23,083 nucleotides of DNA from a virus. Of the stretch, positions 1-3,000 are shown piece by piece. The stretch's first letter is position 1. Each line of letters begins with the position of its first letter. The position numbers were made by a program. The stretch lies in the UHGV virus genome UHGV-2162644; one strand, written 5' to 3'.

Positions 1-3000
1 TAGCCCATGACCACACAATATGGATTTTTTATCGATTCCAGCCGCTGTACTGGCTGTAAAACCTGCGAACTGGCGTGCAAAGATTTTAAAGTTGGTTACG
101 TATCGTTTAAAATCAATTAGATAGCCCGTCATTTCTGCGCTCACACGTCCCAACATTGAAAAACATGCAAAGCTTTGTAAGCCGATGCAAAGCTTTGTGT
201 GTCTCACTTTTGTCCCAATACCAATCCGAATCCACCCTTTGTCATCATTGAGAAATGGCAAGGAAGAAAAGGATGTTACTGCACGATTTGACAAATCCGC
301 CAGAGCTATCGCATACTGATCGCACTGAACAAATAAGCGGTCTCCGCACCCGATAGCTTTGCGGCTTTTTTATGCCTGCAATTTGGCATAGTTACATCCG
401 TACAAAGGTCGGGTGGAGAGGCGTAATACAACACCCGCAAGGGGAATATGCCCAGAGCTTCTTATTTGGCTCAGTTGACACCCGACCGCCAGCTACTAAC
501 TGGCGGTTATAAACTAAACAAATAAGGAGGTCATCATGACCAGTCAACTCATCCCCGTATTCAACGGTTCTATCTCAAACCAAGCAGCCCTTCTATGCAA
601 TGCTCGCAATCTACACGCTTTCCTTGGGGTTGGTAAACGCTTTGCATCGTGGATAACAGAACGTATTGCTGAATATGGTTTCGTTGAAAATCAGGACTAT
701 ATGATTGCTTCCCAAATTCGGGAAGCAAAAGGTAGAGGCGGTCACAACCGCAAGGAATACCACCTCACCCTCGACACAGCCAAAGAGCTTGCGATGGTTG
801 ACGACTGCGTCCAATACTGACTATACTCCGCGCCGAGGCCTCGAAAACCTCCCAAAAGCGGATTAAACCAACCCCGTCAGTGTTGGATTTTTTATGCCTG
901 TTATTCAGTGATAGCACAGTGTGCGGTCACATCCCCGATCAATGTCGGGAGGGCGACGAATACAACACCCGCAAGGGGAATAAGTCCGCGGTATCTTTTG
1001 GGCCGTTTCGAGCCTCCCGGCACCACATCTTGTGGTGGCATTTCTCGAAAAAAGCCAAAGGAGGTCATCATGACCACTCAACTCATCCCTGTGTTTGAAG
1101 GTACAATCTCAAATGAACCTACGCTTCTGGTGAACGCGCGTGATTTGCATGGATTTTTAGAGGTAGGTAAAGATTTTTCTAACTGGATACGGGCCAGGCT
1201 AAACGAGTATGGATTCGTAGAAAATTTAGACTACATTCTATTTTCGCCAAATTTGGCGAAAACTCCAGGCCGCCGCCGCAAGGATTACCACCTCACCCTC
1301 GACACAGCCAAAGAGCTTGCGATGGTTGAACGTAACGAAAAAGGTCGCCAGATCCGCCGCTACTTCATCGAGTGCGAAAAGAAACTTCGCAACATTCAGC
1401 CAGTACAAGCAGAACCACAGCCGCAATTCACAGCCGAGGAAATCATCCTCCTTTGCTACATGCAGCTCTGGATGGAAAAAGCCCAGGACCTTAGCAAGCA
1501 GCTGTACCCCATAATGAAAGAGCTGAACTCCTCATACACGAACAAGCTGTATGACATTGCGTTTGAGACTATCTACATGGTGACGAAGAACAGAGATGTG
1601 CTACTGAGAGAGGCGGCACGGCTTGACCAGTCGAGTTTCGTAGTTCAGCGGGCCAGACCAATGCTGAAAAGCCTGCGGGCAAGACAATTTGAATTCTGAT
1701 ACCAAAGGAGCTTCGGCTCCTTTTTTTATACCTGAACGACAACGCCGCTGAAATCGAAGAGTTAATACAATAAAGAGAAGAGCTCAGTACATTAGATAAA
1801 CATTTTTTATCATTATCTCATTGCCTTTATTCAAAAAAATAGTTACATAACGTTACTAGGTAAAATGCAAACCCTCGCTATTTTTATCAGATTGTATGCC
1901 GGTAACTATAACAAAAATCAGAACTGGAGAAGATGTTTTGTCAGCAGCCATTCACCGCATTGAATGGTTGTTTGAAACATTCTCTTCTGTATGTTTATCT
2001 TTTTCTGGCGGTAAAGATTCCACTGTACTTTTCCATCTTGTAGCCGAAGTGGCCTACAGGAAGAAACGTCGTTTTTCTGTATTGTTCATTGACTGGGAAG
2101 CCCAGTATCAATGCACCATTGATCATATACAGAAGATGCGGATGATGTACCAAGATGTAACAGATACCTTTTACTGGGTTGCACTTCCCCTGACGACAGT
2201 AAATGGTGTCTCGCAGTTTCAGCCTGAGTGGATATGCTGGGAGCCCGGTGTAGAGTGGGTTCGACAGCCACCGGAAGATGCTATTACTGATATGGCGTAT
2301 TTCCCCTTTTACCGCTACGCCATGACTTTTGAAGAATTTGTCCCAGCTTTTTCTTCCTGGTTCGCAAGTAACCAATGTAGCGTGGCAATACTGACTGGAG
2401 TCCGCGCGGATGAATCTCTTAACAGATTTATGGGACTGGTTTCCCAACGAAAACTGAGATATGCAGATGATAAACCCTGGACCACGGCGTCACCTGAAGG
2501 TTTTTACTACACCATGTATCCGCTGTATGACTGGAAAACCAACGATATCTGGGTATATAACGCTAAAACCTGTGCAATCTACAATCCTCTGTATGATTTG
2601 ATGTACCGTGCAGGCATTCCTCTACGTAATATGCGTGTCTGTGAGCCTTTTGGCCCGGAACAGCGTAAGGGACTATGGCTTTATCATGTTCTGGAGCCAG
2701 AAACTTGGGCACGGATGTGTGAACGAGTATCTGGTGCTGCCAGTGGGGCTCTTTATGCCAATGAAAGCGGGGCCTATTTTGCCCTGCGTAAACGGATGTC
2801 AAAACCATCCCATCATACCTGGCGCAGCTATGCGTTCTTCCTGCTGGACGTAATGCCGGAAAGAACGGCTGAACACTACCGCAACAAGATAGCAGTTTAC
2901 CTGCGCTGGTATCAGAACCGGGGATTCCCGGATGATATCCCGGATGAACAGGAAAATGATCTGGGCTGCCGGGATGTTCCCTCCTGGCGACGTATTTGTA

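Follow-up and report, generated by a model that had tools for sequence, protein, structure and literature searches.

sRNA-Xcc1 RNAs before two tandem antirepressor genes of an E. coli prophage: probable C4-type control on a different RNA scaffold

A close described counterpart of the locus analyzed here is the immI (c4) region of phages P1 and P7. In the annotated P1 record the order is promoter P1c4, a1, b1, C4 (77 nucleotides, nt), a2, b2 and icd, and both the c4-a1b1/isrK element and C4 were matched by Rfam on this phage (C4, 68.8 bits). The Rfam model of C4 places b' in the loop of its second hairpin and a' in the strand that links this hairpin to the closing stem, after which the mature RNA ends with ACC. 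The subject of this report is a 23,083-nt stretch of viral DNA (UHGV virus genome UHGV-2162644), referred to in its full length as the window, in which two tandem units each place a structured leader RNA of the sRNA-Xcc1 family in front of an antirepressor gene (Table 1). Within a lambdoid, 933W-like E. coli prophage, the window forms the right-hand end; it is 100% identical to Escherichia phage PhiR5_2, the two-unit arrangement included. We consider it probable that the region consists of two tandem C4-type antisense-gated antirepressor cassettes in which sRNA-Xcc1 serves as a different RNA scaffold. The kind of system and the RNA family were already known; the link between sRNA-Xcc1 and C4-type control, and the extended motif of a hairpin designated P4, two targets, a promoter and a terminator, appear to be new.

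Other systems are also instructive. At the Salmonella Gifsy-1 IsrK/STnc1160 locus (isrK-orf45-anrP), the long read-through transcript and a short, terminated leader RNA have target sequence in common (PMC4825925). IsrK and the CI RNA of phage P4 (seqA/seqC) have in common with the window units a short terminated leader and a downstream processed RNA, the output being an antirepressor and prophage induction (PMC4825925), although unit 1 of the window lacks the first hairpins of IsrK. The ant gene of phage P22 (sar, Arc, Mnt) also encodes an antirepressor under post-transcriptional RNA control, and the P22_AR_C domain is common to it and the window Ant, but sar RNA is made from the opposite strand and spans the ant ribosome-binding site (RBS), whereas the regulator in the window lies upstream on the same strand.

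sRNA-Xcc1 was first found in an integron cassette of Xanthomonas campestris, the organism in which an 88-nt RNA was detected by Northern blot and rapid amplification of cDNA ends, with its ends mapped at the closing stem (PMC2996969). Chen et al. 2011, as cited by other authors, describe it as a trans-acting small RNA (sRNA) controlled by HrpG/HrpX, and it has been detected in vesicles. It lies upstream of symE in Xanthomonas integron cassettes and upstream of an ORF6N gene in the APSE phages, and it adjoins isrK and C4 RNAs in Xylella. In the literature searched, no paper tied sRNA-Xcc1 to antirepressor control or to C4. The family belongs to no clan in Rfam 15, in which C4 (RF01695) and c4-a1b1 (RF03163) share clan CL00128.

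The sRNA-Xcc1 RNAs of the two leaders

Both leaders belong to the sRNA-Xcc1 family (Rfam RF02221). The scores were 69.1 bits (E value 4.8e-12) for copy 1 and 73.4 bits (E value 4.5e-13) for copy 2, against a gathering score of 53 bits, and both matches were full length (model positions 1-87 of 87). Covariance-model alignments gave the family structure, a three-way junction with a closing stem, P1, of 9 base pairs (bp), a P2 arm and a P3 hairpin. The P2 arm is made up of an AAUACAA/GAAU internal loop and a CCC-GNAA-GGG hairpin; the three-way junction and the conserved arm, AAUACAA..CCCGNAAGGGGAAU, are the features that the window copies share with the described members. The minimum-energy fold of copy 1 was the family structure (z = -3.8), and 7 of 8 P1 pairs showed compensatory changes among 34 diverse homologues. 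RNAalifold, run on a MAFFT alignment, recovered P1 and the GNRA hairpin and missed P2a and P3 because of indels, so that the Rfam model was used for P2a and P3.

An earlier note on this DNA had described a tandem duplication of an antirepressor unit with a 24-nt leader block, and most of that description stands. The tandem units are present and the block, AATACAACACCCGCAAGGGGAATA, occurs exactly twice (425-448 and 959-982), each copy ending 88 nt before an ATG (536 and 1070). The leader hairpins of differing sequence occupy equivalent positions (486-506 and 1021-1037), the RBS, AAGGAGGTCATCATGACCA, is common to both units, the AntA N-termini are as claimed, and the genes encode 94 and 209 amino acids (aa). 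Pairwise alignment of the units showed that the similarity extends beyond the coding N-terminus: a T-run followed by ATGCCTG (366-378 and 888-900), the 24-nt block and the RBS are shared, with diverged flanks between them. A repeat search also gave a 54-nt coding block (748-801 and 1276-1329) that is 98% identical.

What the block does has to be read differently. It coincides exactly with the conserved part of the P2 arm and is internally paired in the window (CCC-GCAA-GGG, with a GNRA loop), and thus forms the invariant core of the P2 arm of a structured RNA rather than a site to which a second RNA binds. The note had suggested that the block is the target of a prophage-encoded antisense RNA or of a protein, in the manner of P22 sar, and the perfect conservation of both the block and its spacing in the two units agrees with that suggestion. 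It is nevertheless highly improbable, and for an RNA partner largely refuted, on several grounds. A search of the window and of the other 49 kilobases of the phage for the block or its complement, on either strand with up to 3 mismatches, found no complement and no further copy (0 expected in the window), so an antisense RNA does not have its pairing site here, and the block is paired instead within a structure supported by covariation. There is no opposite-strand promoter-like site in either leader, the sole minus-strand one in 1-2400 being at 111-83. A phage-specific partner is also unlikely because the block is conserved across phyla in unrelated phages. The note had offered P1 c4 and P22 sar as alternative precedents; the first was right in kind, while the second finds no opposite-strand promoter-like site to start from.

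A scan of viral contigs for the core pattern returned at least 120 loci, and a scan of bacterial genomes at least 120 more, spread over all classes of Pseudomonadota plus a few further phyla; the listed matches include exact cores in genomes assigned to phyla beyond Pseudomonadota. From the matches listed, 86 non-identical instances (viral contigs plus the window) and 85 from bacterial genomes, ~170 in total, were compared. An RCC tail followed P1 in 74 of 86 and 53 of 85 instances, respectively, as in the GCCA and ACCA of the window copies. A hairpin stood at the P4 position in almost all homologues, with varying sequence; in unit 1, AACTG (498-502) of this hairpin is complementary to J3/1. 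The RF02221 model stops short of the P4 hairpin and leaves the targets outside.

Table 1. Coordinates of features in the window
Feature	Position	Strand	Details
Unit 1 promoter-like site	288-317	+	-35 TTGACA 288-293, 18 nt, -10 CATACT 312-317; 10/12 consensus
Unit 1 upstream target (a1/b1-like)	324-337	+	ACTGAACAAATAAG; direct repeat (D12) with 513-526
Unit 1 isrK-type terminator element	337-378	+	GCGG-TCT-CCGC 337-347, loop ACCCGATAGCTTT, GCGG 361-364, T-run 366-371, ATGCCTG 372-378
sRNA-Xcc1 copy 1	407-495	+	RF02221; P1 407-415/479-487; 24-nt arm 425-448
Copy 1, P3 and junction	455-491	+	P3 hairpin 455-472, loop 458-468 (b'-like); J3/1 473-478 (a'-like); tail GCCA 488-491
Unit 1 P4 hairpin	486-506	+	CCGCCAG-CTACTAA-CTGGCGG, directly after P1
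Unit 1 downstream target (a2/b2-like)	512-530	+	AACT 512-515; CAAATAAGGAG 519-529; Shine-Dalgarno AAGGAGG 524-530
Short antirepressor gene	536-820	+	94 aa; Pfam AntA 1.8e-25, residues 21-89
Unit 2 promoter-like site	798-827	+	-35 TTGACG 798-803, 18 nt, -10 TATACT 822-827; 10/12 consensus
Unit 2 upstream target	835-858	+	Hairpin GAGG/CCTC 835-851, a1-like CTCGAAA 840-846 in loop, b1-like CCCAAAAG 851-858
Unit 2 isrK-type terminator element	858-900	+	GCGG 858-861, stem CCAAC/GTTGG 868-886, loop CCCGTCAGT, T-run 888-893, ATGCCTG 894-900
sRNA-Xcc1 copy 2	944-1029	+	RF02221; P1 944-952/1013-1021; 24-nt arm 959-982
Copy 2, P3 loop and junction	994-1025	+	P3 loop TCTTTTGG 994-1001 (b'-like); J3/1 TTTCGAG 1006-1012 (a'-like); tail ACCA 1022-1025
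Unit 2 P4 hairpin	1021-1037	+	CACCACA-TCT-TGTGGTG
Unit 2 downstream target	1044-1064	+	a2-like CTCGAAA 1044-1050; b2-like CCAAAGGA 1055-1062; Shine-Dalgarno AAGGAGG 1058-1064
Full-length antirepressor gene	1070-1699	+	209 aa; Pfam AntA 1.1e-26 and P22_AR_C 4.7e-08
Intrinsic terminator after ant	1704-1734	+	AAAGGAGC-TTCG-GCTCCTTT and T-run, then ATACCTG
IbrA-like gene	1896-3122		PAPS_reduct and DUF3440
IbrB-annotated gene	3107-3751		PhiR5_2 annotation; no Pfam hit
SocA/Panacea antitoxin-like gene	3840-4364	-	After the IbrA/IbrB-like pair

Flanking targets and their covariation with the loops

The segments through which both RNAs can pair are their variable parts, the P3 loop (458-468 and 994-1001) and J3/1 (472-476 and 1006-1012). 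In unit 1, CAAATAAGGAG pairs with the P3 loop sequence CTTCTTATTTG as an inverted repeat (I13) with a duplex energy of -18.8 kcal/mol. In unit 2 (inverted repeat I5, -19.4 kcal/mol), the a2-like segment pairs with J3/1 and CCAAAGGA with TCTTTTGG. The Shine-Dalgarno (SD) sequence is covered by the pairing in both units. A second copy of the target lies upstream of each RNA. In unit 1, CAAATAAG (330-337) is complementary to positions 461-468 of the P3 loop and ACTGA (324-328) to 471-475, giving a duplex of -14.3 kcal/mol, and the upstream target of unit 2 forms a duplex of -20.4 kcal/mol with the loops of copy 2.

Each upstream target copy is preceded by a promoter-like site and followed by a terminator (the terminators proper being 344-371 and 868-893). 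The predicted start of unit 1, at approximately 324, is the beginning of its upstream target, while the promoter-like site of unit 2 overlaps the 3' end of the short gene and its TTGAC begins 60 nt before the end of b1, as in the homologues (median 61-62). Both sites would be active as promoters. The hairpins with T-runs that the earlier note took for terminators are indeed present; they are not mere ends of the preceding genes, however, but a conserved leader element of each cassette. No promoter between the terminator and sRNA-Xcc1 (372-406 and 894-943) was convincing by eye, and none was found there in the promoter scan. The folds of the predicted short leader RNAs (324-371 and 834-893) were not more stable than those of shuffled sequences, and thermodynamics therefore gives the short leader RNAs no support. 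Two candidate LexA boxes upstream of the units, picked out by eye as CTGC-N8-ATAG (375-390) and CTGT-N14-ACAG (898-919), were rejected, as neither fits CTGT-N8-ACAG.

The same two-sided complementarity was found across the homologues. Open reading frames (ORFs) preceded by an SD started a median of 48-49 nt after P1 in both sets. In the viral set, the P3 loop and J3/1 paired with their own RBS region at a mean of -16.4 kcal/mol, compared with -10.8 kcal/mol for permuted partners (z = -19, n = 86, in a permutation that ignores the relatedness of the sequences). In 80% of native combinations, against 5.5% of non-native ones, the 24 nt ahead of the start codon contained a stretch of 6 nt or more perfectly complementary to the P3 loop; for J3/1, a complement near the start codon was present in 70% against 14%. 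There were dozens of distinct P3-loop sequences, each with its own matching target. The upstream copy behaved similarly: a P3-loop complement was found in the upstream 130 nt in 80% of native and 9.5% of non-native combinations. The genome set (n = 85) replicated both results: native and non-native combinations gave 46% and 2.2%, respectively, at the RBS, and 58% and 7.5% at the upstream target.

Upstream of nearly every listed sRNA-Xcc1 copy there is an element with the consensus of a target copy ending in AG, then CGG-N3-6-CCGC-R-CCCG-WNAG-N-GCGG-T6-7-RYGCCTG. A small hairpin usually carries the a-type upstream target in its loop; b1 and then CGG follow. TTGAC occurred at a fixed distance of 61-62 nt from the end of the b1 copy at 45 of 66 and 36 of 48 listed loci, where 1-2.4 would be expected.

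The genes that follow are also consistent in kind. The downstream proteins of the viral set formed 39 clusters, and one representative of each was scanned together with the two Ant proteins of the window. An antirepressor-type N-terminal domain from one of six unrelated families (Bro-N, Phage_pRha, P22_AR_N, AntA, ORF6N or KilA-N) was carried by 26 of these 41. Several of the remaining clusters are ORFs of 80-130 aa, with stop codons that overlap the beginning of a Bro-N or P22_AR_N gene. At the one Xanthomonas locus that was checked (L184), the downstream gene encodes the toxin SymE.

These results bear on the description of sRNA-Xcc1, taken for granted in its name and in work on Xanthomonas and Xylella, as a free-standing trans-acting sRNA, which would act mainly on host mRNAs and whose place before ant would be incidental. 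That description agrees with the HrpG/HrpX-controlled RNA of Chen et al. 2011, as cited by others, and with a discrete RNA (PMC2996969) that is also found in vesicles. Yet the variable single-stranded parts covary with their own flanks in the ~170 listed instances; the pairing segments differ between loci, so that no common host target can be served; and the association with antirepressors of six unrelated N-terminal domain families and with SymE is consistent. We regard an essentially host-directed function as quite unlikely. In contrast to a virulence-linked trans sRNA, the window copies and their ~170 homologues are locus-specific, precede antirepressor or toxin genes and have two flanking targets.

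Tandem copies recur in the family. One viral contig (L072) has two sRNA-Xcc1 copies (at 8278 and 8660), 382 nt apart, each before an ORF of 127 aa, and a genomic island of Xylella Temecula1 has five copies approximately 381 nt apart (PMC12189769).

Comparison with C4-type cassettes and alternative readings

The window units and the immI region of P1 and P7 have the same succession of parts: a promoter, a1 in a hairpin loop, b1, a terminator, a three-way-junction RNA of ~85 nt, a2, b2 at the RBS, and (icd-)ant. As in P1 C4, the pairing segments are the loop of the second hairpin and J3/1, and an RCC(A) tail follows the closing stem. The leader terminators are also alike, GCGG-ACAA-CCGC..CCGATA..GCGG-TATTTTTGTGTCCG in P1 and GCGG-TCT-CCGC-ACCCGATAGCTTT-GCGG-CTTTTTTATGCCTG in unit 1, and both end in a tail of the form T-run plus RYGYCYG. 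The small ORFs that overlap Bro-N or P22_AR_N genes in the sRNA-Xcc1 homologues resemble the icd-ant1 overlap of P1. The scaffolds differ in that the closing stem of sRNA-Xcc1 has 9-11 bp, compared with ~17 in C4, and its first arm is an elaborate, invariant hairpin with an internal loop, whereas that of C4 is a plain UUCG hairpin.

A canonical cassette of the C4 type is present in PhiR5_2 itself, outside the window. At 16298-17224 there is a c4-a1b1/isrK and C4 cassette (76.5, 75.8 and 46.9 bits, C4 scoring 76.5), 54 nt upstream of a third antirepressor gene (ORF6N and P22_AR_C). In this cassette the loop of a hairpin holds a1, and b1 precedes the terminator; the hairpin directly after C4 has a2 in its loop, and b2 precedes the SD. 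The P4 hairpin of unit 1 has its equivalent in this hairpin after C4. Together with the two sRNA-Xcc1 units, one phage would therefore hold three RNA-gated antirepressor cassettes built on two RNA scaffolds.

T-runs with related tails were seen elsewhere. In the window, a T-run followed by AT(G/A)CCTG stands after three hairpins (366-378, 888-900 and 1722-1734), including the plain terminator of the full-length ant, where the third copy of TTTTTTATRCCTG lies (1722-1734). P1 (TATTTTTGTGTCCG) and the PhiR5_2 C4 cassette (TTTTTTTATGCGC) have a related T-run plus RYGYSYG after their leader terminators. The T-run and ATRCCTG-type tail could be a module boundary or a functional tail.

The C4-type reading draws directly on the family membership and structure of the RNAs, the complementarity and covariation on both sides, the gene association and the architectural parallel. 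The window has several features of C4-type control, namely a' and b' segments complementary to a2 and b2 at the RBS, a second a1/b1 pair with a terminator, and an antirepressor gene downstream. In the proposed mechanism, each cassette would comprise a sigma-70 promoter, an a1/b1-like leader, an intrinsic terminator, the ~85-nt RNA, a small hairpin, an a2/b2-like target at the SD and ant. Transcripts reading through the leader terminator would contain sRNA-Xcc1, which, by analogy with C4, would probably be released by RNase P at the foot of the acceptor-like P1 stem, with RCCA following. By pairing with the ant RBS region, its P3 loop and J3/1 would prevent translation, acting either in cis or in trans. 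Pairing of sRNA-Xcc1 with the upstream copy on the nascent leader may influence termination; alternatively, the short terminated RNA with the upstream copy may compete for sRNA-Xcc1 and free the RBS. Both behaviors have been described for P4 CI and IsrK (PMC4825925). The activating role of the short RNA is known from genetics in IsrK (PMC4825925), whereas in the window it is suggested by the sequence. Ant, once made, would inactivate a phage repressor.

Several observations weigh against this interpretation or limit it, 1) the a'-type pairing of unit 1 is weak, at 4-5 bp, 2) copy 1 can form a fairly stable duplex with the unit 2 RBS as well (-17.2 kcal/mol), since the two RBSs are nearly identical, and the cassettes are therefore not clearly orthogonal, 3) the Rfam models C4, isrK, c4-a1b1 and c4-2 had no match at E <= 1 in positions 300-1900 of the window, so that the link to C4 rests on architecture and pairing logic rather than on detectable sequence homology and the window cassettes are not filed in those families, 4) the permutation tests treat related sequences as independent, 5) covariation with the loop is confined to the upstream copy at several Xanthomonas loci, so occlusion of the RBS may not be universal, 6) the promoters, termination, processing and repression at the locus are predictions from the nucleotide sequence, as are the direction of regulation, the choice between cis and trans action and the function of Ant, and 7) the invariance of the 24-nt arm is left unexplained by the model. 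The arm may serve the tertiary fold of the RNA or contact a universal host factor; a conserved host protein that binds it is possible and would be compatible with C4-type control.

At five Xanthomonas loci (L128, L132, L160, L188 and L196), the P3 loop varies by strain and covaries perfectly with the upstream b1-like copy, and an unvarying, non-complementary sequence precedes the called ORF. Pairing with the upstream copy may predominate at these loci, or the ORF may have been called wrongly.

The invariant arm invites another explanation, a purely cis-acting leader resembling a riboswitch, in which the arm would bind a small molecule or ion and the folded aptamer would hold the SD in a pseudoknot with the P3 loop, making the translation of ant responsive to the ligand. 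Three features would suit such a leader: the block does not vary across Enterobacteria, Xanthomonas, Bartonella, Desulfovibrio and further groups, whereas its surroundings covary; the RNA stands consistently ~48 nt before the start codon; and the pairing of the P3 loop with the SD is geometrically an H-type pseudoknot. An upstream target copy with its own promoter and terminator, however, has no role in a simple riboswitch, yet is the hallmark of C4, CI and IsrK. Moreover, the RNA is a discrete 88-nt species in Xanthomonas (PMC2996969), some Xanthomonas loci have an RBS that lacks any complementarity, the gene context suggests no ligand and no evidence of an alternative fold was found. A riboswitch is therefore unlikely, and C4-type control remains the preferred reading.

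A wider proposal is offered tentatively, as a possible though doubtful extension of C4-type control. sRNA-Xcc1 would be a third widespread scaffold of C4/CI-class immunity RNAs, not a virulence sRNA, and would control antirepressors and SymE-type toxins carried by mobile elements of many Pseudomonadota. The 24-nt arm would bind a universal component of the cell or a ligand, tying antirepressor release and prophage induction to the state of this partner. If the arm does act in this way, tandem cassettes with different loops and targets would give one prophage two separately addressable induction switches; the arm is the part that could hold something new. If sRNA-Xcc1 gates these genes, the immunity logic of P1, P4 and IsrK would extend to many more phages, integron cassettes and toxin genes, compensatory mutations in loops and targets would provide simple handles for switching individual prophages on or off, and a family annotated genome-wide as a virulence sRNA would gain a concrete, testable function. 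Antirepressors are an SOS-independent route to prophage induction, and in Stx-type phages induction also drives toxin production. In phage Phi24B, deletion of ant lowered late-promoter activity during norfloxacin induction (PMC3064807).

Antirepressor genes and prophage context

The product of the short gene has a complete AntA domain and lacks P22_AR_C. The gene encoding 209 aa is annotated as an antirepressor in PhiR5_2 and in RefSeq E. coli genomes. The short ORF is open and has the same end, MVDDCVQY, in four phages, the one in the window and phiSTEC801-Stx1a, 75/02 Stx and POCJ13. Compared with the window, the N-terminal parts of the other three differ at 40-45 of 95 codons, 17-19 of these differences being synonymous. 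The retention of the MVDDCVQY junction despite strongly diverged N-terminal parts suggests that the truncated, AntA-only form of 94-95 aa is maintained rather than decaying. In VT2-Sakai there is a single unit, with an N-terminus of the unit 1 type joined to the full C-terminus, and the tandem form therefore differs by insertion or unequal exchange at the shared HLTLDTAKE(L/T)AMV block. For Sp5 of EHEC Sakai one unit (H0160) is recorded. The two-unit arrangement was found in at least 19 complete E. coli genomes. A weak match to STnc130 at 1695-1817 on the minus strand was far below threshold and covered only the terminator stem.

The host gene carrying the prophage insertion encodes a 4Fe-4S protein (DmsB/YnfG-like); its first ~30 codons, cut by the prophage, lie at 7-95 in the same direction as the ant cassettes. 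Near this remnant, in the region 163-202, ATGCAAAGCTTTGT occurs twice (165-178 and 185-198), each copy with the palindrome CAAAGCTTTG inside it; the paired copies may be att or integrase-arm sites. The integrase gene is at the opposite end of the PhiR5_2 record and, once the DNA is circular, its strand reads toward the ant region.

Beyond the antirepressor units, an IbrA/IbrB-like pair lies within the 1896-4364 region. The tail genes that follow include an ORF of 2406 aa annotated as hypothetical (4515-11735), a gene for a Lom/Ail outer-membrane protein (15358-16092) and a gene with a YadA-like membrane anchor (20910-22211), all on the minus strand. In the late-regulatory region of PhiR5_2, two members of the STnc100 sRNA family stand in tandem, at 20137-20330 and 20606-20815 (139 and 130 bits).

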